Shown: piece by piece, positions 716 through 27,630 of the stretch
How the letters are laid out: every line of letters begins with the position of its first letter
Numbering within the stretch: the first letter of the stretch is position 1
Source: a virus
Direction: 5' to 3' (one strand)
Virus genome (UHGV): UHGV-1949486
Length of the DNA stretch: 27,630 bases
Program-made: the position numbers and the translations under genes
The notes under the pieces: generated by a model
Told to the model about the DNA's origin: nothing
Databases searched by the model: none
The model's input: only the letters and a program-made list of their open reading frames with translations

Positions 716-717
716 CG

Positions 718-3817: not shown

Positions 3818-3818
3818 G

Positions 3819-4157: not shown

Positions 4158-4166
4158 AACGCCTCC

Positions 4167-5120: not shown

Positions 5121-5134
5121 GATTTCTCCTTAAA

Positions 5135-6923: not shown

Positions 6924-6925
6924 TG

Positions 6926-11399: not shown

Positions 11400-11725
11400 T
11401 ATTGACCTCCGGTATTGCGGTACTGCTGTACCACTTCCAGTTTGTTATAAAGCGCGTCCAGTTTGGCCTCAATGACTGTCTGGCCACGGATATAATCCTC
11501 TCGACGGACATAATTCAGCGGTAAATCCGCTTTAAATCGCATAAATTCTTTTTCCAGCTCGCCCCAGTTGGAGGCGGATTGTTGCAGGGCCTGTTCAAGG
11601 GAGGCGAATCGTGCCGCCTGGCGTTCTTCTGTTTTACTGAACAACCATTTGGCGAGCCCTCCCACAAACCCCATGAAGGTGAGCAGAAAACTCACCACCG
11701 TCCAGAATTCAACCTGCAGTGTCAT
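11399..11725 (-). CDS. Hypothetical membrane protein (Mu gp25 position)
   Basis: 108 aa with N-terminal hydrophobic helix (WTVVSFLLTFMGFVGGLAKWLF) then a charged coiled-coil-like tail. Confidence 0.5.
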   Translation of the reverse strand: MTLQVEFWTVVSFLLTFMGFVGGLAKWLFSKTEERQAARFASLEQALQQSASNWGELEKEFMRFKADLPLNYVRREDYIRGQTVIEAKLDALYNKLEVVQQYRNTGGQ

Positions 11726-12976: not shown

Positions 12977-13098
12977 ATGAACCAGAAAGGTCCCGGCGCG
13001 GACTGACAGGCGTTCGGTTCTGATGAAGACCCGAAAGGCTTCGAAAGCCAGTTTCAGGGACATGCATACAATCCAGGTGATCTGCGGCCAGTTCATGA

Positions 13099-13449
13099 TT
13101 AAAGCCCCATCGCAACAGCCAGACAGACAGCTGCAACAATCAGTGCACGGCGGATTAACGCAGCAGAAAATACAAGGTGAAGGCCGGTCTGCACAGGGAA
13201 ACGCCCTTCAGCCATCAGCCTGTCTTCATGTTTCAGGTACTGACCGGGACGGGCTTTGGGGAAGAGCGAACGGTCAAGCCAGTACCCCAGCACTGCTGCC
13301 AGCGTGATGAGTGCCAGCTTGTAGATCACAACAGGCAACTGCTGTGGCGAGACCAGAGCGATGATGCCCAGCAACAGCACTGAGGTCAGCAGCCAGCCGC
13401 TGAGGCGAGGTTTTTTAACAGGGGGAATGAATTTTTTCAGGTTTTTCAT
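13099..13449 (-). CDS. Putative holin-like membrane protein (first gene of the late operon in this window)
   Basis: ATG at 13449 with AGGAGA Shine-Dalgarno 7 nt upstream (long ORF to 13482 trimmed); about 116 aa with two to three hydrophobic helices; immediately upstream of the endolysin. Confidence 0.5.
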   Translation of the reverse strand: MKNLKKFIPPVKKPRLSGWLLTSVLLLGIIALVSPQQLPVVIYKLALITLAAVLGYWLDRSLFPKARPGQYLKHEDRLMAEGRFPVQTGLHLVFSAALIRRALIVAAVCLAVAMGL

Positions 13450-13671
13450 GTGTGTCTCCTCGTTTGGTGGAGACAGCATCACAAATGTGGCGGGATACGG
13501 ATTTTAAACAGCGTTAATAGTGAAGATGTAAACGTGCACTGCATGATGGCTTTGAAAGAACGACCAGCCCGGTACCCGAACACCGGGCTGGCCATCGCCC
13601 CACAGGAATGCGCTGTGAGCCGACCAAGGTTCAGTCAGTCTCGCGAGACCAGACTAGCCTGCCATATTTTT

Positions 13672-14467: not shown

Positions 14468-15662
14468 CCGAATAGTAAGACTTCATGCAGTGAATCAAGT
14501 ACTGCATGAAGTCAAGGGCTGGTTTTGTGTACCAAAAATAAACAGTGATAGCGGTAATAATTCCCATAACTAGAACACCACGTATAATCCAGAACGTACG
14601 TTTCTGCGTGTCTAGTCGCGCAGAAATACTGCTAAATACACCAGCCACGTCATCTTTAATGAAGGAATATTCCTTATTAATCTGTTTTTCTTTGTATTCA
14701 ATTTCTTCGCCTAAGGCCTTTATAGATTGCATCTGGTTCGAAAGTGCCAGCCAGATTAACGTTGCAGCAAAAATGCATCCCAGAAGAATTATTGTGTTTG
14801 TTATCCCTTGGCCTGACCATTTCGTAGCCACTTTGAATTGGGTAGCTACGATAACAGAGGCAACAGGAATGCCAAGTATATGGTTCTGGATATCTGAAAA
14901 CGCTTTGTGGATTTTACCCATTTCTTCGACTTTTGCAGCACGCAGTTGATCCATTACTTTGTCATAAGAGAATCCAGAAGAGTAGATACGATACCCTTTC
15001 AGAAACTTTTCATGCAGACGCTGAATATTGTCCAGTAAATAAGCGAATACTAGAGGTGAATCAATTCCATCACTAACTGCTTGAATACTTTCAATCAGAA
15101 TATCTAGCTTCTGATCCTTATGGGTATCATCATTGAAACAAGCTATAAGGTTATCAAGATACTCCCTTTGCAAATTTTGTACATTTTCTGCAGCGAAGTG
15201 CGGTAATAGCTTGATAACTTCTTTTTTCAGAAAAACTAACTGACAAGTTGAGTTATCAAAGTAGGCCGCGGCCTCTTTTAGCAGGTTAACGAACTCGAGA
15301 ATCTTCCGGTAGTTGCTGATGAAAACGGGGATATCTTCATCATCATTACGAAATTTTGTTTCTAGGATGAAGTAATTAGCTGGCTCAAGGCACTGATGCT
15401 TTGGAGCATTTAGCAATTTTTCATGGGTGGAAAACACAAGTCCCAGTCCACTCCGTGGTGACGTCACACGTAGGATGATCGTGTTACCTGGAGCGATAGT
15501 GCCTGTATCAATAGAAAGACCATATTCACGAGGATCATCAAGCAAAGTATCAACCAGATCACAATCGGACTGATCTAAGAGCAACAGCGAACCGACACGA
15601 AACCCCTCTTGGAATTCCATACGACGATACAGAGCTGTCAGCATCTCAAATGAAATCGCCAC
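14457..15662 (-). CDS. Uncharacterised protein with two C-terminal transmembrane helices; downstream partner of the YejK/NdpA-like gene (candidate effector of a two-gene accessory system)
   Basis: 401-aa ORF starting 2 nt after the upstream gene stop; hydrophobic helices GITNTIILLGCIFAATLIWLALS and FWIIRGVLVMGIITAITVYFWY near the C-terminus; AT-rich codon usage unlike flanking phage genes; no family recognised by eye. Confidence 0.6.
   Translation of the reverse strand: MAISFEMLTALYRRMEFQEGFRVGSLLLLDQSDCDLVDTLLDDPREYGLSIDTGTIAPGNTIILRVTSPRSGLGLVFSTHEKLLNAPKHQCLEPANYFILETKFRNDDEDIPVFISNYRKILEFVNLLKEAAAYFDNSTCQLVFLKKEVIKLLPHFAAENVQNLQREYLDNLIACFNDDTHKDQKLDILIESIQAVSDGIDSPLVFAYLLDNIQRLHEKFLKGYRIYSSGFSYDKVMDQLRAAKVEEMGKIHKAFSDIQNHILGIPVASVIVATQFKVATKWSGQGITNTIILLGCIFAATLIWLALSNQMQSIKALGEEIEYKEKQINKEYSFIKDDVAGVFSSISARLDTQKRTFWIIRGVLVMGIITAITVYFWYTKPALDFMQYLIHCMKSYYSVKS
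14479..14513. terminator. Perfect 13-bp-stem hairpin (9-nt loop) at the convergence of dam and the 401-aa gene; candidate bidirectional terminator
   Basis: GACTTCATGCAGT gaatcaagt ACTGCATGAAGTC read directly; a T-rich tract (GGTTTTGTGT) lies 7 nt downstream on the plus strand; overlaps the last 18 codons of the minus-strand gene. Confidence 0.5.
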
Positions 15663-15664
15663 GA

Positions 15665-16672
15665 TTAAACCTCAGTCATCCACATTTCCCTAAATTCTTC
15701 AGGTACATTACGTAGGGTGATAATATTTGTTTCCGGATCATAATCAATATAGCCTTCAGTTTTCCCTTCCCGGTCAAACTTAAGTTCCCAATATTTAGAC
15801 TTGCCTTTAAAAGATACCAGAGCCCGAATGACTCGACCATCAGGAACGAAGCCATCCGATAACTCCAACTCTTCAGCAGCAAGTTTACCAGATAACTCCT
15901 CGGGAGCCTGGGGCCAAATGGCATTAACAAGGGTTTCAAGACTAAGTGGTTCACCAGCCTTACTTAGTGCATGTAAGTGTTCAAACGCACTCTTAAGAAA
16001 TGCATCTTTTTCAGCGCCGTCAAGTCCTTTCTCTGCCGCAAATGCTTTTAAAACGTCACGTAACTTTTCAGACTCTCGTTTGGCGATTAAGACATCATTA
16101 CAGCCTAGGAACTGTTTAAAATAGTTTGAAACATTACCTTGCCCCTTAAGAAAACTGATATAGCGCTCTGCGCCACTTTCCCACGCGGTTAAGTCAATGC
16201 GCCCAGCCATACGCAGCTTAGCAATATCAAGATAGGTACTATCTTGGATGTTAAAATCATCTGTGACAGTGGACCCAATGGTAGCGCTTACAATAGCTAT
16301 CAACAGGTGTTCATTGTGTCCTATCACGATATTTGCAAAAAGAACATAACCACCAGTAGCCATGTTTTCTCGCTGAGAACGTTCCGTCAGGTGATGCATC
16401 ATTCGGCAGGAACTTTGGTAGAAATCATCAACACCTTCGAGAAAGTCCCCAGCCATTCGTTCCATAGGATAGTTATCCGTATCGCCTTCAAAATAGCCAT
16501 AACCTTTACCTGTGCGTCCTGCATATTTTGCACAAATATCGTTTATAAGGCGCTGAGAGGCTTCAGTAACTAGACCTTCTTCAGGACTCAATCTCTCAGA
16601 AGCGTCTCCATTTTGTTGTTTGTCTAAAATGTGAACTACAACGTGTTTAACTTCAATGGTCTGCTCAGACAT
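15665..16672 (-). CDS. YejK/NdpA-family nucleoid-associated-protein homolog (phage-borne)
   Basis: 335 aa, same length as E. coli YejK; recognisable family blocks (HVVVHILDK, GGYVLFA, HLLIAIV, RIDLTAWESGAERYISFLKGQG) matching YejK as recalled from memory; strong AGGTGG Shine-Dalgarno 7 nt upstream of the ATG at 16672; AT-rich. Confidence 0.7.
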   Translation of the reverse strand: MSEQTIEVKHVVVHILDKQQNGDASERLSPEEGLVTEASQRLINDICAKYAGRTGKGYGYFEGDTDNYPMERMAGDFLEGVDDFYQSSCRMMHHLTERSQRENMATGGYVLFANIVIGHNEHLLIAIVSATIGSTVTDDFNIQDSTYLDIAKLRMAGRIDLTAWESGAERYISFLKGQGNVSNYFKQFLGCNDVLIAKRESEKLRDVLKAFAAEKGLDGAEKDAFLKSAFEHLHALSKAGEPLSLETLVNAIWPQAPEELSGKLAAEELELSDGFVPDGRVIRALVSFKGKSKYWELKFDREGKTEGYIDYDPETNIITLRNVPEEFREMWMTEV

Positions 16673-16742
16673 TGGCTATCCACCTTATTTTTTATTGCTT
16701 AATGGCAAATAATTTCTGCTATATGTTCTCGTTAGGAACACA

Positions 16743-17150
16743 TTAACCCACATTTTTTAACCGCTCAATCGTTGCGGATAATTCCTTCAGTTGTTTTTCC
16801 ATCTCAATCACACGCTGTTTTTCTTCAGCGCCTCGCATGAGATCTCGCCGAACCTCAGGATCTAACTGGTTTAGAAGTTCAAGCATTTTAAGGTCTGACG
16901 GGCTGAATTGATGTTGTGTTGGTACAGCAACAATTTCTTTAGATGGAATATGTTCTTTACCGGTAAGTAGCCAATCGATTGATACACCCAAATGGGTACT
17001 TAGCGCAACAAGAGCCTCTGCGTTTGGTTCTCTCTCTCCACGCAAATAGTTTTGAAGTGAGCGATATGGAATTTTTGATAAGTCAGATAATGCCTTTATT
17101 GTCATGCCATTAGCATCCATCACTTCACGCAATCTCTCTTTTGTACTCAT
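16743..17150 (-). CDS. Prophage repressor, XRE-family helix-turn-helix (c/CI-like)
   Basis: HTH segment (MTIKALSDLSKIPYRSLQNYLRGEREPNAEALVALSTHLGVSIDWLL); divergent from the early operon; start placed at the internal ATG 17150 (MSTKERL...) because the longer ORF to 17246 would run through the early promoter. Confidence 0.7.
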   Translation of the reverse strand: MSTKERLREVMDANGMTIKALSDLSKIPYRSLQNYLRGEREPNAEALVALSTHLGVSIDWLLTGKEHIPSKEIVAVPTQHQFSPSDLKMLELLNQLDPEVRRDLMRGAEEKQRVIEMEKQLKELSATIERLKNVG

Positions 17151-17166
17151 TTGAACATATCTCAAT

Positions 17167-17194
17167 TTGACACACTCATTTGGGTGTGTACAAT
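17167..17194 (+). promoter_or_regulatory. Early promoter (Pe-like): TTGACA, 16-nt spacer, TACAAT, with an operator-like dyad ACACAC/GTGTGT in the spacer
   Basis: Hexamers read directly at 17167-17172 and 17189-17194; inverted repeat 17170-17175 / 17184-17189; sits between the divergent repressor and ner-like genes. Confidence 0.55.
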
Positions 17195-17238
17195 AGACCC
17201 AATAGAGTACATCATAACCTAACAGGAACACGGTGCAT

Positions 17239-17463
17239 ATGAACAAACAACAAGTTCGGGCACGGCTGGTTGAACGAGGCAGTAGCTTGCGCCAGTTCGC
17301 GCTTAACGCGGGCTATGAACCACGAACAGTCACCCAGGCAGTCAGTCGCTGGGCTGGTAAAAGTGAACTACCTCGCGGTCGTTTGACTTATCGGATTTTG
17401 CGAGATCTATCGGTTGCAATAGGTAAAGAAGTTACCCCCGGTATCCTTAAGGAGGCGTCATGA
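17239..17463 (+). CDS. ner: Ner-like DNA-binding protein (Mu Ner / Nlp family)
   Basis: Similarity to Mu Ner core (SLRQFALNAGYEPRTVTQAVSRW); first early gene; ATG at 17239 preferred over GTG at 17233 on AGGA spacing. Confidence 0.7.
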   Translation: MNKQQVRARLVERGSSLRQFALNAGYEPRTVTQAVSRWAGKSELPRGRLTYRILRDLSVAIGKEVTPGILKEAS

Positions 17464-17768
17464 ATAAACCAAATACATCAAGCTCAGGTATCCGTATTTT
17501 GCGCGTTCTTAAGGCCTTACGTGGCCACGCTTTGAACGGTGTTTCTAACGGGGAACTAGCGGTTGCACTGCACGAATCACCGGCAAACATCAACCGGGCA
17601 CTTAACACGCTCATTGAAGAAGGGTTGGCTCTGAAACTAGAAAACGGGCGTTTCGCACCAGGCATCCAGTTGCTGCAGATCGCCATGGCCCACAGTAACG
17701 AGATGGCACGTGCACAGGATCGCATTAACGAAATCAACCAACGTGTTATTTCAGGTAGTCGTTTGTAA
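17460..17768 (+). CDS. Putative winged-helix DNA-binding protein (hypothetical early protein)
   Basis: 102 aa; AAGGAGG Shine-Dalgarno; ATGA overlap with ner stop; HTH-like segment NGVSNGELAVALHESPANINRALNTLIEEGL. Confidence 0.5.
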   Translation: MNKPNTSSSGIRILRVLKALRGHALNGVSNGELAVALHESPANINRALNTLIEEGLALKLENGRFAPGIQLLQIAMAHSNEMARAQDRINEINQRVISGSRL

Positions 17769-17778
17769 GGAGTAATCA

Positions 17779-18690
17779 ATGGGACGCACCAAATCACCGG
17801 TTAGCACTGAACTGAACGTCGAGGTACCGCTGTCGGATGATCTCAATGTCAGTCTAAACGCCATGACACAGCATCGCATGGAAATCATGCAACAGTTCGG
17901 CGATGGTCTGCCTTATGAGCGCGATCGTGTTGTCCATGAGGCACGCTTTTATATGGCACAGAGCGCTGAGGCCATGCTGGAGGCAGGTAAGCGGCTGATA
18001 ATCCTTAAGGAAAATGAACCACACGGGGAGTTTATAAAGATTCTTGAAAGTGAGTTGGGGCTGGCATACCGGACATCTGTGAGAATGATGCAAGCATCGA
18101 CAAAATACTTATCCCCGGCGCTGAAACCAAATGTGCCAACGTTGGCACATTTGGGAAAAGCCAAACTTTTCGAATTAATGACAGAAGACGACGAAGAGCT
18201 TGCCGAACTGGCCGACGGCGGCACAGTTGCCGGCCTGACGCTTGACGACGTTGATCGCATGTCAGTACGCGAACTTCGCCAGGCCCTGCGCGAAGCGCGC
18301 GAAACCAACGCAGCACAACAGCGCGTACTCGCCGATAAAAATGAAAAAATTGATTCTCTCTCTACCAGACTGGAAAAGAAATCCCGTATTCAGCTGCCTG
18401 AGCCTGATGAGGAGGTTAAGAAGCTGCGGGCGGAAGTGACAGCATTAGCGGTTGAGGCGGAATCTGCCATCGCCGTTCGACTGTCCAGCGCTTTTGAGAC
18501 ACTGTGCGCATATTGTGCTGAAAACATGATTGATACCCCCAGAGACTTCATGGCAGGCCTGGTCTGTCAACTGGAAAGCACAGCGCGTAGCCTGCGCTCC
18601 ACATTTGACCTGCCGGACGAGCCAACAGGCGATGTCGCGCCTTCATGGCTGACTGAGCCGACGCCACAGATTAACGGGCTGGAGGCATAA
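17779..18690 (+). CDS. Hypothetical early protein (303 aa)
   Basis: AAGGAG Shine-Dalgarno; acidic and coiled-coil-rich; no catalytic motif recognised. Confidence 0.5.
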   Translation: MGRTKSPVSTELNVEVPLSDDLNVSLNAMTQHRMEIMQQFGDGLPYERDRVVHEARFYMAQSAEAMLEAGKRLIILKENEPHGEFIKILESELGLAYRTSVRMMQASTKYLSPALKPNVPTLAHLGKAKLFELMTEDDEELAELADGGTVAGLTLDDVDRMSVRELRQALREARETNAAQQRVLADKNEKIDSLSTRLEKKSRIQLPEPDEEVKKLRAEVTALAVEAESAIAVRLSSAFETLCAYCAENMIDTPRDFMAGLVCQLESTARSLRSTFDLPDEPTGDVAPSWLTEPTPQINGLEA

Positions 18691-18693
18691 CCA

Positions 18694-20463
18694 ATGAATG
18701 CTGCCCTGACTGAACGACTGGTTTATGTCGCCCGCGCGGCACGTGACGCGGGGCATGGTAAACGCGGTGCAATATACGACGCTGCCTGTGCTGAACTTGG
18801 CATGTCCCGCGCCACTCTGCTGCGCAGGCTGAAGGAGGTCTCTGTGACTGATAAACGCAAAAAACGCGCCGATGCCGGGCGCAGCGCCCTGACCCGCGAC
18901 GAAGCCGCGCTGATATCTGCCACACTGCGTGAGGCCACCCGCAAGAACGGTAAGCGTCTCTATTCCATCGCAGATGCAGTGGAAACCCTGCGGGCTAACG
19001 GCTTTATCTCCGCAGGCAGAACAGATGAAACCACCGGTGAGTTTTTCCCGTTGTCCGAAGATGCCATCAGCCGTGCCCTGCGTAACTATGGCCTGCACCC
19101 GGAACAACTGGATGCCCCTGCGCCGCATACCGAAGTGGCCAGTCTGCATCCCAATCACGTCTGGCAGATTGATGCCTCGCTCTGCACGCTTTACTACCTG
19201 AGCAATGGACACAAAGGGCTGCAGGTGATGGACAGCGCGAAATTCTACAAGAACAAGCCCGCTAACCTTGCCCGTATCGCCAGTGACCGCGTGTGGAGTT
19301 ATGAGATTACCGACCATGCCAGCGGCTGGATTTACGTTGAGTATGTGACGGGTGCGGAATCCGGTGAGAACCTGTGTTCTGTGCTTATCAACGCCATGCA
19401 GGAGCGTGGCGGCGCAGACGTGCTGCACGGCGTGCCAAAAATACTCTATCTCGACCCCGGCTCGGCAAACACCGCGGGTATGACGAAAAACATGTGCCGC
19501 TCACTGGGCATTGACCTGATAGCGCACAAGCCGCATAACGCCCGCGCCACCGGACAGGTGGAAAAGGCGCGGGACATTATCGAACGCAAGCTGGAGCCGG
19601 GTCTGAAGTTCCGGCCGGTTCACAGTCTGGAAGAACTCAACGCGCTGGCCGCGAAATGGCGCAGCCACTTTAACGCCACGGCTGTTCACAGCCGCCACGG
19701 TAAAACCCGCACGGATATCTGGCTGAAGATTACTGCTGAGCAGCTGAAAAAAGCGCCTTCCGTTGAGGTATGTCGTGAACTGGCTGTGGCGGCACCAGAA
19801 CTCCGCAAAGTCACGCCAAAACTTCGTGTCTCGTTCCGGGGCACTGAATTTGACGTATCAACGGTACCGGGCGTACTGGTTGGTGAAAAACTGATGATTA
19901 CCCGTAACCCATGGCGCAGCGATGTGGCACAGGTGGTTCTGACCGGTGAGGACGGCCACGAGACGTTCTTCCTGGTCGAAGAGGTCAGAAAGAACGAGTT
20001 TGGCTTTGCTGAAGGCGCGGCGGTATTTGGCGAAAGTTACAAAGCCCTGCCGGAAACCCCGGCACAGATGGCGGCAAAAGAAACTGAAGCGCTGGTTACC
20101 GGTACAGACAACGCCGCAGATGCAGCCGCCGCACGCAAGGCGAAGGCGCTGCCGTTCGGCGGGCGGGCTGACCCGCATAAACATAACCACGAAACACTGC
20201 TGCCGGCCTATATGCCGAAGCGTGGTCAGGCCTCTGACGTACGCGGGCCGCGCACTGAACAACGTCCCATGACTCATGTGGAGGCCGCGAAAGCCCTGCG
20301 CGATAAGTTCAGCGCCGACGGCCTTACCTGGACGCCGGAACATTACCGCCAGTTAACGGCACAGTACCCGGACGGCGTACCGGAAGCCGCACTGGATGAA
20401 GTCATGGCCACGCTGACCACACCGGCCAGCAGCAGTGTTATCAGCATAGTTAACGGCAACTGA
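18694..20463 (+). CDS. DDE transposase (Mu A-like / retroviral-integrase-fold catalytic core)
   Basis: 589 aa; candidate catalytic triad blocks HVWQIDAS, ILYLDPGSANT and ATGQVEKARD in the order and spacing of Mu A D-D-E residues; followed by an ATPase gene. Confidence 0.85.
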   Translation: MNAALTERLVYVARAARDAGHGKRGAIYDAACAELGMSRATLLRRLKEVSVTDKRKKRADAGRSALTRDEAALISATLREATRKNGKRLYSIADAVETLRANGFISAGRTDETTGEFFPLSEDAISRALRNYGLHPEQLDAPAPHTEVASLHPNHVWQIDASLCTLYYLSNGHKGLQVMDSAKFYKNKPANLARIASDRVWSYEITDHASGWIYVEYVTGAESGENLCSVLINAMQERGGADVLHGVPKILYLDPGSANTAGMTKNMCRSLGIDLIAHKPHNARATGQVEKARDIIERKLEPGLKFRPVHSLEELNALAAKWRSHFNATAVHSRHGKTRTDIWLKITAEQLKKAPSVEVCRELAVAAPELRKVTPKLRVSFRGTEFDVSTVPGVLVGEKLMITRNPWRSDVAQVVLTGEDGHETFFLVEEVRKNEFGFAEGAAVFGESYKALPETPAQMAAKETEALVTGTDNAADAAAARKAKALPFGGRADPHKHNHETLLPAYMPKRGQASDVRGPRTEQRPMTHVEAAKALRDKFSADGLTWTPEHYRQLTAQYPDGVPEAALDEVMATLTTPASSSVISIVNGN

Positions 20464-20473
20464 GGAGGGAAAC

Positions 20474-21640
20474 ATGCTGGTACTGAAGCAGCAACTGAAA
20501 GAGGCCCGTATTCCACAGGCGGTGGTGGCGAGAGCTGTCGATGTTTCTGAGGCCACGCTGGCCCAGATTGTGAATCATAACGCGTGGCCCCGCACCAGCC
20601 CCGGAGAAGTGCGCCGGCGTCTTGCGTCCTGGCTGGAAAGTCAGGGGATTGATACAACGAAGAGTTTTGATGCTGTACAGGGCGCGGCCACGCCCCGTAC
20701 AGCGGGTACCACAGATAAAACGAGCCTCAGTGAGGAAGAGAATATGTTACTCAAAAAACAGGTGTTATTTCCAGCAACCAAAAAAGCGTTTGGTCTTTTC
20801 CGTGACCCGTTCGCCGACGAAGCCATGCAGGGTTCTGATGATGTGTTCACCACCCCGGATATTCGCTACGTGCGTGAGGCGTTGTACCAGACAGCCCGTC
20901 ATGGTGGGTTTATGGCCGTCATCGGTGAGTCCGGTGCGGGTAAATCCACGCTGCGCCGCGACCTGACTGAACGTATCAACCGCGAGAATGCGCCGGTAAT
21001 TGTTATCGAGCCATACATCATCGCTATGGAAGACAACGATGTGAAAGGGAAAACCCTGAAGGCAGCAGCGATTGCCGAAGCCATTATCAGTACCATCGCA
21101 CCACTGGAAAGCATCAGACGCAGTCAGGACGCCCGCTTTCGCCAGTTGCATCGCGTCCTGAAAGACAGCAGCCAGGCGGGGTTCAGCCACGTTCTGGTGA
21201 TTGAGGAGGCCCACAGTCTGCCCATTCCGACACTGAAACACCTCAAACGCTTTTTTGAGCTGGAGTCCGGTTTCAAAAAACTGCTGTCCATCGTGCTGAT
21301 TGGCCAGCCGGAACTGGCGACAAAACTGTCTGAACGCAATATGGAAGTCCGTGAAGTCGTTCAGCGCTGTGAGGTGGTCGAACTTCTGCCTCTGGACAAT
21401 AACCTTGAAGAGTTTCTGACGTTCAAACTGCAACGGGCCGGTAAACAACTGACGGACATTATGGACGCCAGCGCAGTGGATGCCATACGTGCCCGCCTGA
21501 GCAATCCGGGAAGTCATCGTAAAAATATGGTCAGCCTGCTGTATCCGCTGGCCGTCAGTAACCTGGTAATAGCCGCCATGAATCTGGCCGCTGAAATCGG
21601 GGTTCCACAGGTCAACGCTGACGTTGTCAAAGGGGTTTAA
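20474..21640 (+). CDS. Transposition ATPase (Mu B / TniB-like AAA+ protein)
   Basis: 388 aa; Walker A GESGAGKST and Walker B-like HVLVIEEAHSL; N-terminal HTH-like segment; immediately downstream of the transposase. Confidence 0.8.
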   Translation: MLVLKQQLKEARIPQAVVARAVDVSEATLAQIVNHNAWPRTSPGEVRRRLASWLESQGIDTTKSFDAVQGAATPRTAGTTDKTSLSEEENMLLKKQVLFPATKKAFGLFRDPFADEAMQGSDDVFTTPDIRYVREALYQTARHGGFMAVIGESGAGKSTLRRDLTERINRENAPVIVIEPYIIAMEDNDVKGKTLKAAAIAEAIISTIAPLESIRRSQDARFRQLHRVLKDSSQAGFSHVLVIEEAHSLPIPTLKHLKRFFELESGFKKLLSIVLIGQPELATKLSERNMEVREVVQRCEVVELLPLDNNLEEFLTFKLQRAGKQLTDIMDASAVDAIRARLSNPGSHRKNMVSLLYPLAVSNLVIAAMNLAAEIGVPQVNADVVKGV

Positions 21641-21642
21641 TA

Positions 21643-21912
21643 ATGAAATCCACCACAGGTATCAACCAGCAAATCAGCAAAGTGCAGTCAGCCATTATGG
21701 CGCTTAAGGCGACGAACACGGATGTACAAAGCATCACCATCAGGGGTAACAAACCTGTCATCCGCGTTTCCCGGAGTGCGCATTGCATGCGCATGCTTGA
21801 GCAGGGAAAGGCCTGTTATCTGTATACCGGTCATGACCACAGGGGACATTTCCGTCAGGGCGTTTTCGAACTGCACGGCTGTCGCGTCGTGTGGCCGGAA
21901 TCTTTGTGGTAA
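21643..21912 (+). CDS. Hypothetical early protein (89 aa)
   Basis: ORF starting 3 nt after the ATPase gene stop; no motif recognised. Confidence 0.4.
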   Translation: MKSTTGINQQISKVQSAIMALKATNTDVQSITIRGNKPVIRVSRSAHCMRMLEQGKACYLYTGHDHRGHFRQGVFELHGCRVVWPESLW

Positions 21913-21939
21913 TCAGCACAACAGGAGGAGTCATAAAAT

Positions 21940-22470
21940 ATGGCAAAAAGTACAAAAGGGGCAAAACGTATCAAAGCCGCAGCAGCACTCTGGGTGCCGG
22001 GGACACGCGAAGAGGTCATTGAGGGAATCAGACTGCTTGGTGACGCGCAACGTGAACTGGTCAGGGCTGAAACAGAAATGAATGACACCATTGGCGACAT
22101 CACTGCACGTTATGCCCCGCTCACCGAGAGCCTGAAAAAACGCATGGCCGAACTGCAGTCCGGTATCCAGACATGGTGTGAGGCGCACCGTGATGAACTG
22201 ACCGGCAACGGGAAGGTGAAGTTCGCTAACCTCACCACCGGCGAGGTGCAGTGGCGAAACCGTCCGCCGTCAGTCAGCATTCGCGGGGCGGATAATGTTA
22301 TTGAATTACTGAGACGTCTGGGGCTTGAGCGCTTTATTCGTGTAAAGGAGGAAATAAATAAAGATGCCATTCTGAATGAAAAAGAGGCTGTGAAAAATAT
22401 TCCCGGTATTACCATAAAAAGTGATATTGAGGATTTTTCAATAATTCCTTTTGAGCAGGATGTGCAGTAA
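21940..22470 (+). CDS. gam: Gam-like host-nuclease inhibitor (Mu Gam family, DNA-end binding)
   Basis: 176 aa; strong similarity to Mu Gam as recalled (KRIKAAAA..., ETEMNDTI, WCEAHRDELT, VKFANLTTGEVQWRNRPPSVSIRG, FIRVKEEINKDAIL, GITIKSDIEDFSIIPFEQ); AGGAGG Shine-Dalgarno. Confidence 0.85.
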   Translation: MAKSTKGAKRIKAAAALWVPGTREEVIEGIRLLGDAQRELVRAETEMNDTIGDITARYAPLTESLKKRMAELQSGIQTWCEAHRDELTGNGKVKFANLTTGEVQWRNRPPSVSIRGADNVIELLRRLGLERFIRVKEEINKDAILNEKEAVKNIPGITIKSDIEDFSIIPFEQDVQ

Positions 22471-22567
22471 ACACACCACGTTAATTATTTAATAAAAACA
22501 TTTTCTTTTTTATTCCGGCGTCAGCGCCGCGGGCTTCTGCACGCCGGAAACAGAGGAGAATTAAATT

Positions 22568-22762
22568 ATGATATTTAAATGTATTCAGTGCGAGAGGGAT
22601 ATAACAGCCCTGCGTTTTCACAGCGCCATCGCCGTGATGTCCGGTAAGTATCACATACCTGCAGTACGTGTCACCCTGGTCTGCCCGTACTGCAGCCAGC
22701 ATTTTTCGGCGGACGTGCCCGTCATAGAATTCTCCCGCCCTGACAGGGAGGACGCGCAATGA
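22568..22762 (+). CDS. Small putative zinc-ribbon protein (two CxxC pairs)
   Basis: 64 aa; KCIQC and VCPYC motifs; GAGGAG Shine-Dalgarno. Confidence 0.45.
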   Translation: MIFKCIQCERDITALRFHSAIAVMSGKYHIPAVRVTLVCPYCSQHFSADVPVIEFSRPDREDAQ

Positions 22763-23031
22763 TTACCCCACAGGAAGCACGACAGCGCACCCGAACTCTT
22801 GTTGAACACTATGTCAACGAGTGTGAATGCCGCGACCTCACCGATGTGAAGCACGTCCTGACGGCGCTAATCAGCATGGCCACACAGGCCATTGTGGCGA
22901 CCAACGGAAAGGAGGCTGCCCTGCAGGTACTGATGAACACACTCACCCACACGGCAGAGCATGAGGTGCCGTACCGGATGGAAACCACTGCAGAAGGCGG
23001 CCTGCACATCACCGTCAGCCGGAAGCACTGA
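22759..23031 (+). CDS. Hypothetical early protein (90 aa)
   Basis: GGGAGG Shine-Dalgarno; 4-bp overlap with the upstream gene. Confidence 0.45.
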   Translation: MITPQEARQRTRTLVEHYVNECECRDLTDVKHVLTALISMATQAIVATNGKEAALQVLMNTLTHTAEHEVPYRMETTAEGGLHITVSRKH

Positions 23032-23040
23032 GGGCGCGGC

Positions 23041-23337
23041 ATGACACGAAACACCGAACTCACCCGCACCGCCCTCTACCGTCTGGCCCTGCAGCGTTTC
23101 GGGCCGGACGCACAGGCCCTGAAACTGACAGAAGAGGCCGCTGAACTGGCGGCCAGTGCTGCCCGCAATCTGAACGGACAGGGCAGCGAAAGTGACCTCG
23201 CGGCAGAGCTGGCAGACGTGGAAATCATGACAGAGCAACTGCGCCTTCAGGGGATGGACCGGCTGATTGACTTCCACAAACAGAAAAAACTGGAACGTCT
23301 GGCTGCACGACTGGGCGTGATTTACACGAACGAGTAA
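23041..23337 (+). CDS. Putative MazG-like nucleotide pyrophosphohydrolase domain protein
   Basis: 98 aa; paired acidic helices with EEAAELA and ELADVEIM motifs characteristic of the small MazG/NTP-PPase fold (assignment by motif only). Confidence 0.45.
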   Translation: MTRNTELTRTALYRLALQRFGPDAQALKLTEEAAELAASAARNLNGQGSESDLAAELADVEIMTEQLRLQGMDRLIDFHKQKKLERLAARLGVIYTNE

Positions 23338-23351
23338 CCGGGAGGCATTCA

Positions 23352-23567
23352 ATGGCTGACATACTCAGGGAAATCACCGCATGGACACTGATTCTTACTG
23401 GCCTGGCGACATGCCTCAGTGCGGGGGCAGCCCTGGCTGCCCTGCTGATGCACATAACAACACAGTGGTTATGGGAAAAGCTTAAAGCAGCATACAGCCT
23501 GAAAGAGCTGTCCGACGCTGTCCGGGCATGGAAACGGCAGAAAAATACCGGAGATACAGAACAATGA
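23352..23567 (+). CDS. Small hypothetical membrane protein
   Basis: 71 aa with one hydrophobic helix (AWTLILTGLATCLSAGAALAALLM); GGGAGG Shine-Dalgarno. Confidence 0.4.
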   Translation: MADILREITAWTLILTGLATCLSAGAALAALLMHITTQWLWEKLKAAYSLKELSDAVRAWKRQKNTGDTEQ

Positions 23568-24247
23568 CAGACCAGAATAAACACATTGAGAAACTGAAAA
23601 AGTTGCTGGCGCTGGCCGCATCCGGCAACCCGCACGAGGCCGCTCTGGCACTGCGCCGAGCCCGTAAACTGATGGATGTTCACGGCATCACACATTCCGA
23701 CATTGCTATGAGTGATATTGATGAAACCATCAGTCATTACTGGCCGACAGGCAGTCTCCGTCCACCGCGCTACATGCTGGGCCTGATGAACATCATCCGC
23801 GAGGCATTTGGTGTTAACTCCATCATTCACCCCGGCACGCATCCGTCTGTGGGGTTCTACGGTAACCGGGAACGAGCGGCACTGGCTGCGTACACCTGGG
23901 AAGTGCTGGTCCGCCAGCTGAAAAAGGCGCGTCAGCAGTATATCAGCGCACAGAACAAAAGAATAAAAAACGCCACCCGTACCAGCCGTGGAGACCAGTT
24001 TGCTGAAGGCTGGGTACTGGCCGTTATCAGTGAAATACAGTCCTTTGCCCTGACCGATGATGAGCGTGAACTGATGCAACAGTGGCTGGAACATAAATAC
24101 CCGCAGACGCAAACCACCAGGGCGCGTAAACCGGGAAGAAGCCGCAATGGCGACGCCTCGCGCTATGCGGGGTTTCGTGAAGGGCAGAACGTCAGACTGC
24201 ACCGCCCGGTCAGTGGGCAGGAACAACAGAAACTGGAGGCCAGATGA
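23564..24247 (+). CDS. Hypothetical protein with DUF2786-like N-terminal domain
   Basis: Start placed at ATG 23564 (GGAGA Shine-Dalgarno 11 nt upstream) rather than the ORF-track start 23528; N-terminus IEKLKKLLALAASGNPHEAALALRRARKLMDVHGI is the characteristic DUF2786 pattern. Confidence 0.5.
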   Translation: MTDQNKHIEKLKKLLALAASGNPHEAALALRRARKLMDVHGITHSDIAMSDIDETISHYWPTGSLRPPRYMLGLMNIIREAFGVNSIIHPGTHPSVGFYGNRERAALAAYTWEVLVRQLKKARQQYISAQNKRIKNATRTSRGDQFAEGWVLAVISEIQSFALTDDERELMQQWLEHKYPQTQTTRARKPGRSRNGDASRYAGFREGQNVRLHRPVSGQEQQKLEAR

Positions 24248-24474
24248 TTACGCTATCAGGTAACAGCCGGAAATTAAAAGCCTGCCGAATATCTGCCAGA
24301 TACCTTTTTGCCCGCGCCTTTTTTAAGAACGTCAGGCCGGGGATCACAATTGGTGTTATTGCCGGACGCGAACAGGTTGAAAAATACATGTCAGGTGCAT
24401 GGTGGAATAACGACCCTGTCATTGCTGCCCGTAATATTCATATCGAATGGGGAGGTATTCAGAATGACTACTGA
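24244..24474 (+). CDS. Hypothetical early protein (76 aa)
   Basis: GGAGG Shine-Dalgarno; ATGA overlap with the upstream gene. Confidence 0.4.
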   Translation: MITLSGNSRKLKACRISARYLFARAFFKNVRPGITIGVIAGREQVEKYMSGAWWNNDPVIAARNIHIEWGGIQNDY

Positions 24475-24670
24475 AACCATTGTCTGTTTTCTTTTCTGGT
24501 ATATGTACGCAGGATCATGCAGCGCAAGACTTCATCGTTCCCTGGGCTATGGCAGGCACTACGACACCGCGCATTACATCCTGTACATGACCGCCGTCAT
24601 GTTGTTCTGGCCAGTCACCCTGCCAGCTGCAACCGACATTGTTGCCGACAGACTGAAAAAAAGGAGATGA
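24464..24670 (+). CDS. Small hypothetical membrane protein (68 aa)
   Basis: Internal ATG at 24464 of ORF 24308-24670, with GGAGG 8 nt upstream; two hydrophobic helices. Confidence 0.4.
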   Translation: MTTETIVCFLFWYMYAGSCSARLHRSLGYGRHYDTAHYILYMTAVMLFWPVTLPAATDIVADRLKKRR

Positions 24671-24671
24671 T

Positions 24672-25121
24672 ATGCAGAAAAAACGCCTGATACAGCTTAT
24701 CCATATTGCCCGTAATGAACTGGGTATGGATGAAGACACCTACCGCCAGATGTTACAGGGGCTGACCGGTAAAGCCTCAACCAAAGGAATGGATACCACA
24801 CAACTAAACTGCGTGCTGGAATCCATGAAAAAGAAAGGCTTTCGCGTTAAACCAGCCAGAAAAGCCAGCTCCGGTTTACCGCTGGATAACCATCCGCAGT
24901 CCAGGAAAATTCGTGCGCTATGGCTTGAAATGGCTGCTGCCGGCATTGTTCGTGACCGTTCAGAAAATGCATTAGCGCGGTGGATCAAGCGGGAAACGGG
25001 CATCAGCGCCCTGCGCTGGCTCAATACTGAACAGGCAAGCAGTGTTATTGAGAAACTGAAGAAGTGGCAGCACAGAGCTGCGGGAGTAAAACATGAGCGA
25101 CCTGAATCAGTTTCGAAGTAA
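24672..25121 (+). CDS. gemA: GemA-like regulatory protein (Mu gp16 / DUF1018 family)
   Basis: 149 aa; N-terminal LIQLIHIARNELGMDEDTYRQMLQGLTGKAS...KKGF pattern typical of Mu GemA; located just upstream of mor as in Mu. Confidence 0.7.
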   Translation: MQKKRLIQLIHIARNELGMDEDTYRQMLQGLTGKASTKGMDTTQLNCVLESMKKKGFRVKPARKASSGLPLDNHPQSRKIRALWLEMAAAGIVRDRSENALARWIKRETGISALRWLNTEQASSVIEKLKKWQHRAAGVKHERPESVSK

Positions 25122-25491
25122 AGGGCCGGAACTCCTGGTGGAGCTGGCACAGCATACCTCTGAGACCGTTCGCGAGATTATTGATATTGAGCCCGCAATT
25201 GCCGACCAGATTGGTCAGGCCGTCGCGAACCGAATGATGCAGGTCTGGGGCGGGCAAAACGTTTATTTCCCGATGGGCATGGTATGGAAGGTCAGTCAGC
25301 GCGACCGGGAAATCTTCAGGGAGTTTAACGGACGCAACCACCACGAACTGGCCCGCAAGTTTGGTGTTTCGCTTCAGTGGGTCTACAGCGTGGTTAAGCG
25401 GGTCAGAAAAGAAGAACTGGATCGGATGCAGGGCAGGTTGTTTGATGAAGATCTGCCAGAGGAGACGAAAGACGTTAACAAATCCAGATAA
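25093..25491 (+). CDS. mor: Mor/C-family transcriptional activator (Mu Mor-like)
   Basis: 132 aa; C-terminal blocks GGQNVYFP and FREFNGRNHHELARKFGVSLQWVYSVVKRVR match the Mor/C family HTH region; last gene of the early operon. Confidence 0.8.
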   Translation: MSDLNQFRSKGPELLVELAQHTSETVREIIDIEPAIADQIGQAVANRMMQVWGGQNVYFPMGMVWKVSQRDREIFREFNGRNHHELARKFGVSLQWVYSVVKRVRKEELDRMQGRLFDEDLPEETKDVNKSR

Positions 25492-25535
25492 TTCCTGCTT
25501 GTTAAAGTCCTTTCAAAAATCTCCTTATTGTATAA

Positions 25536-25567
25536 AAGCACGGTAGACCCCTTACCGTGCTTTTTTT
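25536..25567 (+). terminator. Rho-independent terminator closing the early operon
   Basis: Perfect 10-bp stem AAGCACGGTA / TACCGTGCTT with 7-nt loop, followed by a run of seven T; 45 nt after the mor stop. Confidence 0.75.
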
Positions 25568-25605
25568 ATGCTCTCTCTTTAGTATTCAGGATGCAGGGAG
25601 AAAAT

Positions 25606-26238
25606 ATGTTTGACGTTTCGTTGTTAAATCTGCCATGGGCAACACTGGTGACCCTGACCAGTGGCTATATTGGGTATTTTATTGCGAATGTGGGACTGAA
25701 GGATCACCACAAGCCCATTGAGGTGACTTTTTCTTCGCTGATTTTTGGCCTGACAGCAATGATGGCTTACCAGGCTGTTATGTGGGCAGGTCTGAATGCC
25801 TGGCTGGCAACACCACCAGCACTTCTGTGTGCCGTTACATGCGGTGCGTGGTGGCGCAGGTACGGTCGCAAATGGATGTACAGATTACTGTGGAATAATG
25901 ATGTTTCATGGTCTGACGATACCAGCTCAGCATGGCAGGCAATGTTTGATCAAACAGGCTTCAGCGTTACCGAGGTCAGAGTGATTCTTCGCGATGGTTC
26001 CGGTATGATGTCACGGCTGCCAGGGAACTTTGAAGAGTGGCCTAACGGTCCGTTTACCCTGGGGAATAAAGGCGATATGGTTCTTTACGTCACGCACAGC
26101 AGCCCTTCAGGCAGTAACGAATGGGAAGAGTATAAAGGCGTGGTTGATAAGTACTGGGGAGCTCTGGCAACCTATATTCCAGCAGATCAGATTGCCAGAG
26201 TGGAGATCAGGCGCGTTCGTGCAACGAACGATGAATGA
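25606..26238 (+). CDS. Membrane protein of unknown function; terminal moron-like accessory gene
   Basis: Start moved to ATG 25606 (GGGAG Shine-Dalgarno) because the ORF-track start 25528 would translate through the terminator hairpin; about 210 aa with two to three N-terminal hydrophobic helices and a soluble C-terminal domain; lies between the terminator and the prophage end. Confidence 0.55.
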   Translation: MFDVSLLNLPWATLVTLTSGYIGYFIANVGLKDHHKPIEVTFSSLIFGLTAMMAYQAVMWAGLNAWLATPPALLCAVTCGAWWRRYGRKWMYRLLWNNDVSWSDDTSSAWQAMFDQTGFSVTEVRVILRDGSGMMSRLPGNFEEWPNGPFTLGNKGDMVLYVTHSSPSGSNEWEEYKGVVDKYWGALATYIPADQIARVEIRRVRATNDE

Positions 26239-26556
26239 TGTTTATTTTTTCCCTGGGGCAGGGGCTGCCGGCATAGTGGTTTTATTGGCAGAGGAAGACG
26301 ATTCTCCTTTTCTACCGGAATCGCGCTCGAACGTCACGATGTGCTTGCTTTTGGGCTTTTCTGAGTAATCCAGGCTATCATGCTTATTGTTTTGAGTAGT
26401 CATTGGAATCATCCTTTTTGTTGCGGGTCATGTTTCAGCAAACTCGATTCTAAGTTGCCAGGAAGGATGATTTCAATGCCCGACTTATCTATCGTATAGC
26501 GGAAAAGAATTTCAGTTCTGTTCACCAGAACCCATGTTAACCCACTCCAATTCGTT

Positions 26557-26589
26557 ATTTATCTCACGGATCCCCCTTCATTTATCTCA
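26557..26589 (-). repeat. Prophage terminus: two direct copies of a 10-bp motif (TGAGATAAAT on the minus strand) 23 bp apart; candidate transposase-binding end sites; element ends in CA at 26589
   Basis: ATTTATCTCA read at 26557-26566 and 26580-26589; from the end inward the sequence begins 5-prime TG like Mu ends; the host-like permease frame continues from 26590. Confidence 0.5.
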
Positions 26590-26664
26590 TGTCTGATCAC
26601 CTTTGCACCGAAATCCTGGCCTGCTGCTATCGACTGGCACACCATCATCACCTTAAGCGGCCTG

Positions 26665-27630
26665 ATGCTGCTGACCAAAGGTGTCGAGTTAAGCGGTTAT
26701 TTTGATGTGCTGGGGCGCAAAATGGTGCGCCGTTTTGCTACGGAGCGTCGGCTGGCGATGTTTATGGTACTGGCGGCAGCGCTGCTTTCTACCTTTCTGA
26801 CCAACGATGTCGCACTGTTTATAGTTGTTCCGCTGACTATCACGCTAAAAAGACTGTGTGAGATTCCGGTTAATCGGCTGATTATTTTTGAGGCGCTGGC
26901 AGTCAACGCTGGTTCGCTACTGACGCCAATTGGCAACCCGCAAAATATTCTTATCTGGGGACGTTCTGGTCTTTCGTTTGCCGGATTTATTGCCCAAATG
27001 GCACCGCTGGCTGGCGCAATGATGCTGACACTCCTGCTGTTGTGCTGGTGTTGTTTCCCTGGAAAGGCGCTGCAATACCATACGGGGGTGCAAACGCCGG
27101 AGTGGAAACCGCGGCTGGTGTGGAGTTGTCTGGGGCTGTATATCGTCTTTCTGACGGCGCTGGAGTTAAAACAAGAGCTGTGGGGACTGGTGATTGTGGC
27201 GGCGGGCTTTGCGCTGCTGGCGCGTCGTGTGGTGCTCAGTGTGGACTGGACGCTGCTGCTGGTGTTTATGGCGATGTTTATCGACGTCCATTTACTAACC
27301 CAACTGCCAGTTTTGCAGGGGGTGTTAAGTAACGTGAGTCATTTATCCGAACCCGGATTATGGTTAACGGCGATCGGTTTATCGCAGGTGATCAGTAACG
27401 TGCCGAGTACCATTTTGCTGCTCAATTATGTGCCACCGTCTTTATTACTGGCATGGGCGGTAAACGTGGGGGGCTTTGGTTTATTACCCGGATCGCTGGC
27501 AAATTTGATTGCGTTACGGATGGCGAACGATCGCCGTATCTGGTGGCGTTTTCATCTTTATTCGATACCGATGCTGTTGTGGGCGGCGCTGGTGGGATAT
27601 GTTTTGTTGGTTATGATCCCGGCGGGATAA
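26665..27630 (+). CDS. ArsB/NhaD-superfamily inner-membrane permease (YbiR-like), host gene; probably 5-prime truncated by the prophage insertion
   Basis: 321-aa ORF made of successive hydrophobic helices; different base composition from the prophage; same frame stays open upstream to about 26500 with no start codon, encoding ...FAPKSWPAAIDWHTIITLSGLMLLTKG; family assignment from memory. Confidence 0.6.
   Translation: MLLTKGVELSGYFDVLGRKMVRRFATERRLAMFMVLAAALLSTFLTNDVALFIVVPLTITLKRLCEIPVNRLIIFEALAVNAGSLLTPIGNPQNILIWGRSGLSFAGFIAQMAPLAGAMMLTLLLLCWCCFPGKALQYHTGVQTPEWKPRLVWSCLGLYIVFLTALELKQELWGLVIVAAGFALLARRVVLSVDWTLLLVFMAMFIDVHLLTQLPVLQGVLSNVSHLSEPGLWLTAIGLSQVISNVPSTILLLNYVPPSLLLAWAVNVGGFGLLPGSLANLIALRMANDRRIWWRFHLYSIPMLLWAALVGYVLLVMIPAG

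Follow-up and report, generated by a model that had tools for sequence, protein, structure and literature searches.

A putative portable cassette encoding a membrane protein and a convergent proline-rich microprotein at the right end of a Mu-like prophage

Morons of lambdoid phages (such as HK97 gp15 and lambda bor/lom) and of Pseudomonas Mu-like phages are optional transcription units equipped with promoter and terminator signals. They have a deviant base composition, are patchily distributed among close relatives, and often encode a membrane protein that benefits the lysogen. Membrane effectors also occur in toxin-antitoxin and abortive-infection pairs (e.g., RexAB and type I or type V-like systems), small mobile units that are often found on prophages and in defence islands. 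In the transposable elements IS10 and IS50, fold-back inhibition relies on a complement of the ribosome-binding site that is located before the point at which the element's own transcripts begin, so that read-in transcripts fold and become untranslatable.

A further relevant locus has been described in Pseudomonas stutzeri, in which three small ORFs lie directly behind a DUF6338 gene, in the same orientation, and are predicted to form one operon (PMC10433244). These ORFs encode proline-rich microproteins of 36-47 aa, all three of which were detected by mass spectrometry, including MVSSPGSGVQTNGANPPAPANVRPAMAPTAPPPPKK (MVSS...PPPPKK) with 85 PSMs and MTKKIGGNPGSPVQGGVNKETTSQRPSAPPSAPPPPPKKGG (MTKK...PPPPPKKGG) with 44 PSMs, at ~100% coverage (PMC10433244). 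The microproteins were judged not to be conserved outside the species; it was also reported that DUF6338 occurs in biosynthetic gene clusters, and the proline-rich microproteins were suggested to be possibly antimicrobial (PMC10433244). According to the supplement of the same paper, the P. stutzeri DUF6338 gene is located ~14 kb from the genes of a DUF1156 protein and a helicase/phospholipase D-like protein (PMC10433244), which may, in our reading, constitute a defence system. It was the only paper on DUF6338 found in our literature search, and no paper was found to mention the accessions or PHROG identifiers of the two proteins described below.

The DNA analysed here (the window) is a single stretch of 27,630 nucleotides, UHGV virus genome UHGV-1949486. 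Positions 1-26599 represent a Mu-like transposable prophage with a BcepMu-type layout, which is characterised by a DDE transposase and its AAA+ partner (rve and AAA_22 matches in Pfam), Gam, GemA, and Mor, together with varied insertion sites and terminal repeats ending in CA. A close relative, Escherichia phage PhiKM, is a classified Bcepmuvirus. In addition to a Holin_2-3 holin, the prophage encodes an endolysin and a spanin. Its general organization and the adjoining host DNA are as follows.

1-13482, minus strand: late genes
13099..13482: Holin_2-3 holin gene of the phage, inside the lysis cassette
13697-17246: Dam methylase, AT-rich cargo island, and CI-type repressor, after the late genes
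17460-25491, rightward: early operon (rve-type transposase, AAA+ partner, Gam, GemA, and Mor last)
25093..25491, plus strand: mor, closing gene of the early operon, adjoining the cassette on its left (Pfam Mor PF08765, 1e-43)
26555..26599: right-end transposase sites, two direct copies of ATTTATCTCA at 26557 and 26580, 23 bp apart (repeat search)
26600..27630, plus strand: host DNA, ybiR-like CitMHS permease gene split by the prophage insertion, 3' part (Pfam CitMHS)

The terminus of the prophage (...TGTCTGATCA, ending ...TGATCA) lies at 26599, and the host stretch 26600..27630 was found in 5405 of 5426 E. coli genomes. The same right end is present in 114 complete E. coli genomes, where it adjoins different host genes and homology ends at 26599, as expected for random transposition. 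The two copies of ACGTGAGATAWWT and the terminus TGATCAGAC are kept in eight loci in the alignment of relatives.

The feature under study occupies the slot between mor and the right-end transposase sites and comprises the following elements.

25534..25567, plus strand: terminator, hairpin 25534-25564 with T7 run 25561-25567 (terminator scan)
25596..25600, plus strand: Shine-Dalgarno sequence GGGAG of the large gene, 5 nt before ATG 25606
25606..26238, plus strand: large gene, 210-aa inner-membrane protein (predicted), distant relative of DUF6338, PHROG 12870
26403..26242, minus strand: small gene, 53-aa microprotein (MTTQNN...PAAPAPGKK), PHROG 15726 (1e-41), annotated as a CDS in RefSeq
26401..26478, minus strand: inverted repeat with arms 26478-26463 and 26416-26401, 16 nt, 94% complementary (repeat search)
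26447..26476, minus strand: sigma-70 promoter of the small gene, TTGAAA (26476-26471), 18-nt spacer, TAGAAT (26452-26447), 10/12 matches (promoter scan)
26514..26532, minus strand: terminator-like hairpin facing inward from the phage end, weakly conserved (scan and fold)

Taken as a whole, this feature is very probably a portable cassette of two genes that fills a variable slot at the prophage end and encodes a membrane protein and a translated proline-rich microprotein, with convergent and necessarily overlapping transcripts. The large gene is not an isolated curiosity but one half of an uncharacterised, widely distributed module. An earlier sequence-only reading had described a terminator with a T7 run after mor, followed by a gene with a GGGAG Shine-Dalgarno sequence and ATG 25606, whose product would carry N-terminal transmembrane helices and a soluble C-terminal domain. 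The terminator scan and folding, the 5-nt spacing of the Shine-Dalgarno sequence in front of a 210-aa ORF, and the three helices of the protein model agree with this description, and its placing of the gene at a prophage end is borne out by the boundary at 26599. Its by-eye estimate of an intermediate base composition is also correct: the GC content is 50.1% in the large gene and 47.8% in the cassette, compared with 54.2% in the early operon, 57.7% in the late genes, and 41.1% in the AT-rich island. The cassette thus shows the deviant base composition typical of morons, with a modest difference.

On the left side, homology to cassette-less relatives ends at ~25451, within the 3' end of mor, and the cassette-less E. 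coli prophages shown match the window at 24672-25451 only. The hairpin terminator, which separates the cassette from the early operon, has the core stem GCACGGTA/TACCGTGC and 13 pairs if flanking A-T pairs are included, with a folding energy (RNAfold) of -19 kcal/mol on the plus strand and -16.7 kcal/mol on the minus strand. An A4 tract lies upstream of it, giving a T4 after the hairpin on the minus strand; with A4 upstream and T7 downstream, the hairpin is potentially bidirectional and may also end the small-gene transcript after its antisense run through the large gene. A hairpin and T-run occur at the equivalent position in eight diverged relatives, with stem arms that differ in sequence and pairing that was unscored. 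In one locus (L065), the hairpin is located after an extra gene and immediately before the large gene; this order of mor, extra gene, hairpin, and large gene indicates that the hairpin stays with the large gene and not with mor. The idea that the dyad of the terminator, whose centre lies ~43 bp before a TAGTAT -10 element, also binds Mor was dropped, as the dyad occurs nowhere else in the window, the late-promoter region included. In the predicted RNA fold of this window, GGGAG pairs with CUCUCUC (25571-25577) in the 5' UTR of the large gene; such anti-Shine-Dalgarno pairing is not evidently conserved across the aligned relatives.

With regard to the large protein, the AlphaFold model (35 homologues, pLDDT 86) contains helices at residues 11-27, 37-60, and 65-97 and a beta-rich domain at 119-205, and it predicts three N-terminal transmembrane helices and an Sm/SH3-like beta-barrel in the C-terminal half. 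Homology search or structure prediction of the C-terminal domain had been proposed together with the earlier reading; the model supplies a predicted fold, and its barrel can be superposed on Sm/LSm/Hfq barrels. Because the loop 28-36 is basic and the stretch after helix 3 very basic (hydropathy and positive-inside rule), the protein is probably oriented N-out/C-in, which would place the barrel in the cytoplasm. Conserved positions include H35 in the presumed cytoplasmic loop, SWSD..SAW (~100-110), GD..YVTH (156-164), WG (184-185), and TYIP (189-192). The family comprises 394 clusters at 50% identity, nearly all of ~200-215 aa and matched end to end. The C-terminal extensions of longer family members were considered as possible fusions with the microprotein and rejected, as they are of low complexity and not recognisably homologous.

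Database searches with the large protein gave no match in NCBIfam or PADLOC, and its PHROG 12870 family is of unknown function. In Pfam, nothing was found at E<=0.1 for the window protein or at E<=1 within the homologue alignment, and the window protein does not reach the gathering score of DUF6338 (PF19865). Weak DUF6338 matches were detected in 20 of the 35 homologues (best 1.4e-6), and five homologues have a precomputed DUF6338 annotation. By these profile comparisons, the large protein appears to be a distant sister group of DUF6338 and not a scored member. A sequence-profile search of the PDB returned noise only (E>0.5), and a Foldseek structure search of BFVD returned one uncharacterised full-length relative and weak, non-significant matches of the transmembrane part to holins (E 0.02-1). 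Identification as a class I holin was rejected, since topology alone is similar and the phage has its own Holin_2-3 gene. No similarity to any known exclusion protein was found in the PADLOC, NCBIfam, structure, and PDB profile searches.

The promoter search suggested by the earlier reading did not turn up a promoter for this gene. No candidate for the large gene reaches the threshold of the sigma-70 scan, and nothing is conserved across relatives in the 40-nt gap; the best candidate by eye is TAGACC-17-TATGCT, with 8/12 matches. Transcription of the large gene could proceed via read-through of the terminator or from a weak promoter embedded in the hairpin. The sole conserved promoter of the cassette instead drives the small, antisense-oriented gene. 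The same reading had also seen only non-coding end sequence downstream of the large gene, which is not the case: the 361 bases from the large gene to the phage end are largely taken up by the conserved 53-aa gene and its promoter.

The small gene is convergent with the large gene, their stop codons being 3 nt apart. A start at the alternative ATG 26412 would lengthen the product to 56 aa; PHROG 15726 aligns to residues 4-56 of this longer form, which favours the start at ATG 26403 and the 53-aa product, and an AAGGA Shine-Dalgarno sequence is present 8 nt upstream of ATG 26403. The microprotein (including the stretch MTTQNNKHDSLDYSEK...) is hydrophilic, proline-rich, and probably disordered, and apart from the PHROG family, whose function is unknown, it has no match in Pfam, NCBIfam, or PADLOC (E<=0.1). 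Among 33 distinct loci (large proteins <95% identical) whose downstream sequence was long enough, a strict automatic rule for small convergent ORFs that are hydrophilic and have a proline-rich tail recovered one in 25, and a convergent small ORF was recognised by eye in ~29, compared with 2.8% for random coordinates in the same loci. From stop to stop, the distance is -4 to +18 nt in metagenome loci, and a few other loci lie slightly outside this range at either end; a terminator would not fit between the two genes, and each transcript would therefore be antisense to the other.

The microproteins can be aligned across gamma- and alpha-proteobacteria by an N-terminal MT.K, one or two copies of [FY]xxP[KRQ][ST], and a PPxPKK-like tail, with 13% Pro and few hydrophobic residues. 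In two pairs of loci, the dN/dS of the small gene is 0.20 and 0.25, and that of the large gene 0.12-0.13, values that point to purifying selection on the small gene. On the other hand, intact large genes without a small gene exist in Pantoea persica, Arsenophonus, and two viral contigs (L011, L012, L046, and L051), two of which still show a remnant of the small-gene ribosome-binding site.

The promoter of the small gene is strongly retained: in eight loci (from Citrobacter, Serratia, Salmonella, Symbiopectobacterium, and viral contigs), hardly any change is seen in either hexamer, compared with a mean column identity of 64% for the surrounding DNA. The upstream arm of the inverted repeat overlaps the -35 hexamer, and the downstream arm holds the AAGGA sequence and both ATGs of the small gene. 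Because of this overlap, the upstream arm is missing from the small gene's own mRNA and present solely in transcripts that enter from outside. The stem is found in both the MFE and centroid structures of the read-in RNA (RNAfold); across the eight loci, 82% of cells are paired, as compared with 29-53% for slid controls, and two pairs show compensatory change. This limited covariation supports the repeat as a candidate for fold-back occlusion of small-gene translation, as in IS10; alternatively, the repeat is possibly a pair of DNA operators. In addition, the inward-facing hairpin at 26514..26532 could stop read-in transcription from the host.

Presence and absence of the cassette can be compared directly. 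PhiKM and E. coli ST131 strain 751 have gemA-mor at ~98% identity and lack the cassette, with their end sites (...CATTTATCTCAAGTCTAATCA) within ~165 nt after Mor. The full cassette stretch is present in just 115 of 767 E. coli genomes that match any part of window 24672-26599, and in ~2% of complete E. coli genomes, clinical lineages included. A third state is seen in strain B1.H1.1, with the order Mor, extra 78-aa gene, hairpin, large gene, small convergent gene, and end; the slot of L065 carries an extra 78-aa gene. In all eight enterobacterial loci (retrieved with the protein as query and hence selected), the large gene directly follows GemA-Mor of a Mu-like element.

Outside this setting, distant copies of the large gene (37-43% identity) are located in unrelated phages after tape-measure, after portal and MuF, or after capsid genes, and in one phage the cassette lies between connector and head-completion genes; the large gene of L058 and L060 directly adjoins the structural gene before it. 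In alpha-proteobacterial chromosomes (Afipia and Bradyrhizobium), the gene pair is located beside a serine recombinase (Resolvase+HTH_7), and other neighbours of the cassette include Abi_alpha, DUF4145, Dam methylase, and DUF4411+Peptidase_M78. In the collection of sequenced phage genomes, the sole homologue belongs to a Synechococcus phage (29% identity), and the cassette is thus not present in sequenced BcepMu-like isolates. To judge from these comparisons, the gene pair appears to be an independently mobile cassette and accessory cargo in the moron sense, present in some phages and absent from the same position in close relatives. The moron suggested by the earlier reading therefore holds as far as optional cargo is concerned, but not as a single gene, as the unit consists of two.

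The best overall explanation, to which we give a probability of roughly 45%, is a self-contained, portable two-gene accessory cassette of ~1 kb (25534-26532), inserted in the slot between mor and the right-end transposase sites, whose genes would be expressed and controlled as follows. The small gene would be the constitutively expressed partner in the lysogen, while the membrane protein would be made at a low level or on read-through only. The microprotein, via its conserved polyproline-lysine tail, and/or the antisense transcript would restrain the membrane protein, the tail being a plausible ligand of the SH3-like barrel. In transcripts arriving from host DNA, the fold-back would hide the ribosome-binding site of the small gene, and the cassette would thereby be insulated wherever the phage transposes.

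As to the role itself, a toxin-antidote-like module composed of a membrane effector and a labile antidote, serving abortive infection, superinfection exclusion, or element addiction, is a guess with somewhat less than even odds, drawn from the mobility, the insulation, the promoter asymmetry, and the conflict-type neighbours Abi_alpha, DUF4411+Peptidase_M78, and DUF4145. Several observations speak against it. No PADLOC defence-system model matches either protein (E<=0.1). The large gene has no detectable promoter of its own and abuts a structural gene in two unrelated phages, so that it may be co-transcribed with lytic genes. The intact large genes that lack a small partner (L011, L012, L046, and L051) argue against a strictly essential antidote, and convergence is atypical of protein toxin-antitoxin pairs, the small genes of P. 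stutzeri being on the same strand as their neighbour. A type II toxin-antitoxin system was rejected, as the genes are convergent, the large protein matches no toxin family, and the microprotein has no family apart from its PHROG of unknown function. A broader proposal, which we regard as rather doubtful, is that phages and mobile islets share a widespread two-component system, so far overlooked, made up of DUF6338-type membrane proteins and proline-rich PPxPKK microproteins, in which a disordered microprotein and antisense transcription would gate a membrane effector via its cytoplasmic Sm/SH3-like barrel, representing a new phage-borne type of exclusion, abortive infection, or addiction.

Other explanations assign a different role to one or both genes. 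The large gene may be an accessory of the lytic cycle, involved in kil-like host take-over, in holin/antiholin-like timing of lysis, or in exclusion during lytic growth; its product would come from read-through of the early operon here and from late operons elsewhere, and the small gene and antisense RNA would silence leaky expression in the lysogen. Such a function would suit a large gene that lacks its own promoter, abuts an upstream structural gene in L058 and L060, and follows Mor in 8/8 enterobacterial loci (a set selected for carrying the gene), and the N-out/C-in topology with three transmembrane helices is that of class I holins, to which weak Foldseek matches exist. It is nevertheless unlikely, because the cassette is dispensable, being absent from PhiKM, a Bcepmuvirus isolate, and from the majority of E. 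coli prophages in the lineage, and because the large gene also resides in non-phage chromosomal islets beside recombinases; moreover, the phage already possesses a Holin_2-3 holin, an endolysin, and a spanin, and the holin matches are non-significant. A single-gene moron for lysogenic conversion or superinfection exclusion, whose membrane protein would act alone, e.g., by blocking DNA entry at the inner membrane, with the small ORF being incidental, seems quite improbable to us. It would account for the terminal position after a terminator, for the optional presence among relatives, and for an inner-membrane topology like that of many exclusion proteins, but not for a small gene that is kept with the large gene across phyla-level distances under purifying selection; nor does it fit the lack of a recognised large-gene promoter next to an invariant small-gene promoter, or the lack of similarity to known exclusion proteins.

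Two further possibilities concern the microprotein and are both given very little weight. If the small ORF were an untranslated by-product, conservation would instead concern an antisense RNA or an element at the 3' end that regulates the large gene, as the abutting or overlapping 3' ends in ~30 loci and the low-complexity, fast-evolving sequence might suggest. However, the dN/dS of 0.2-0.25, the preservation of peptide motifs and of the C-terminal PPxPKK despite the divergence of alpha- and gamma-proteobacterial DNA, and a Shine-Dalgarno sequence at the right distance all argue for translation, and the homologous microproteins of P. stutzeri were seen by mass spectrometry with ~100% coverage; since the small genes there share the strand of the DUF6338 gene, they cannot act as antisense in that species. 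The microprotein might otherwise be exported as an effector or serve as a precursor peptide (RiPP-like or signalling), with the membrane protein as its transporter, processing, or immunity factor, a scheme in line with the membrane nature of the partner and with the occurrence of DUF6338 in biosynthetic gene clusters and the antimicrobial suggestion (PMC10433244). It is hardly compatible with a microprotein that has no signal peptide, Cys, or leader/core pattern, or with a cassette that contains no modification enzymes or ABC/peptidase genes and consists of two genes only in nearly all contexts.

Prophage ends and moron slots carry cargo genes that have yielded many new functions in host protection and counter-defence. 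The pairing of a membrane protein with a microprotein turns two hypothetical proteins into a system testable for interaction, toxicity, and antisense control, and it provides a first genetic context for proline-rich microproteins, whose genes are easily missed in annotation and which were earlier judged species-specific. If insulation on both sides is true (the terminator phage-ward and the fold-back host-ward), the cassette would illustrate the way in which a phage that transposes at random shields dosage-sensitive cargo.

In comparison with known systems, the cassette resembles phage morons in being optional, in its deviant GC content, and in encoding a membrane protein, and it may also share their flanking terminator and promoter signals. 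It differs from them in that it has two convergent genes, its conserved promoter belongs to the small antisense-oriented gene and not to the membrane-protein gene, its terminator lies upstream and not downstream of the large gene, and it also occurs outside phages. With RexAB, type I, and type V-like pairs, it shares the form of a small mobile two-gene unit of a membrane protein and a small, probably labile, constitutive partner, whereas that partner is here neither a DNA-binding antitoxin nor RNA only, the genes are convergent and form no operon, toxicity is hypothetical, intact large genes without a partner exist, and PADLOC gives no match. As in IS10/IS50, a repeat arm upstream of the small-gene start is complementary to the ribosome-binding site of that gene, an arrangement sensible for a randomly inserting element; unlike in IS10/IS50, the gene protected by it would be that of a cargo microprotein near a phage end and not that of a transposase, and it is here suggested by RNA folding and limited covariation. 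The barrel of the large protein, a predicted fold, differs from Sm/LSm/Hfq and SH3-like barrels in being membrane-anchored and without sequence similarity to them. Finally, the DUF6338 locus of P. stutzeri is similar in that a membrane protein of the same superfamily (~200 aa) is located directly beside genes of proline-rich microproteins, and the two microproteins compared carry a PPPPKK-type tail resembling that of the alpha-proteobacterial partners (VQGG/VQGN...RPS.PP..PKK); it has, however, three same-strand small genes in one predicted operon where the cassette has one convergent gene, and its membrane protein is a DUF6338 protein, while that of the window reaches no DUF6338 score.

In members of the large-gene family (membrane proteins distantly related to DUF6338), the convergent small gene for the proline-rich microprotein is not always present. 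The large gene is intact and the small gene missing at four comparison loci (L011, L012, L046, and L051), which represent insect-symbiont genomes (Pantoea persica and Arsenophonus) and two viral contigs. Phage end sites are located within 90-160 nt downstream in L011 and L046, and L011 and L012 still carry remnants of the ribosome-binding site and start that belonged to the small gene (AAGATGATTTCAAT / AATATGATTTCAAT). Some family members carry a low-complexity C-terminal extension of 30-80 aa rich in Ala, Pro, Ser, and Arg, and one of these, L005, is devoid of the small gene. Such an extension may be a fused functional analogue of the microprotein; homology between the two was not recognisable on comparison. 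The variant arrangements are as follows.

L011 6633-6800: region without the small gene
L005 8001-8717: C-terminally extended member (protein P0069); protein P0067 is also extended
L002 8802-9272, L014 6789-7313, L017 6791-7342, and L019 6782-7252, minus strand: gene of the 156-183-aa protein ahead of the small gene in Bradyrhizobium/Afipia
L065 2820-3056 (E. coli B1.H1.1): additional gene (78 aa) separating Mor from the hairpin

The Bradyrhizobium and Afipia small genes each follow another gene in a two-gene operon; this leading gene encodes a conserved protein of 156-183 aa with no Pfam match. The encoded protein is possibly a third component, absent from the phage versions. In the L065 slot, the extra 78-aa product ends in NPPPPPPKC and is another small polyproline-tailed protein in the neighbourhood of the cassette.

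The prophage also contains what looks like a second cargo slot, an AT-rich island near the repressor.

Window 14457-16672, minus strand: AT-rich island, 41% GC
Window 13697-14467 and 16743-17246: flanking Dam methylase and CI-type repressor

The island encodes two proteins. The 335-aa protein is an NA37/NdpA-like nucleoid-associated protein (1e-80), and the 401-aa protein has no Pfam match and a weak PADLOC match to KwaA (8e-5); the role of the island is possibly defence-related.

With regard to the right end, copies of a 145-bp piece (window 26446-26590) are found elsewhere at ~90% identity, for instance in L099 (4001-4144); the piece contains the right-end sites of the prophage together with the -10 region of the promoter that serves the small gene. 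Its copies, which are unannotated, occur in chromosomes and at ~100 places in E. coli plasmids, with IS1/IS3 debris adjoining at the one locus examined, and the recurring piece has the appearance of a leftover Mu-like end. Beyond the prophage, the host part (window 26600-27630) belongs to a ybiR-like CitMHS anion-permease gene that is broken by the insertion, so this strain presumably lacks an intact ybiR; the rest of the gene, its 5′ portion, must be located past the opposite end of the prophage and hence outside the window.

In the predicted RNA fold (window 25571-25600), the pyrimidine run CUCUCUC (25571-25577) pairs with the large-gene Shine-Dalgarno sequence GGGAG(AG) and could dampen its translation, a pairing not evidently conserved among relatives. 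The E. coli microprotein tail, PAAPAPGKK, is without a PPP run. Many alpha-type microproteins, like the small proline-rich SEPs encoded beside a DUF6338 gene in Pseudomonas stutzeri, have PPP or PPPP just ahead of the stop codon; EF-P may therefore be needed to translate these proteins, with possible ribosome pausing right at the point where the two convergent genes abut.
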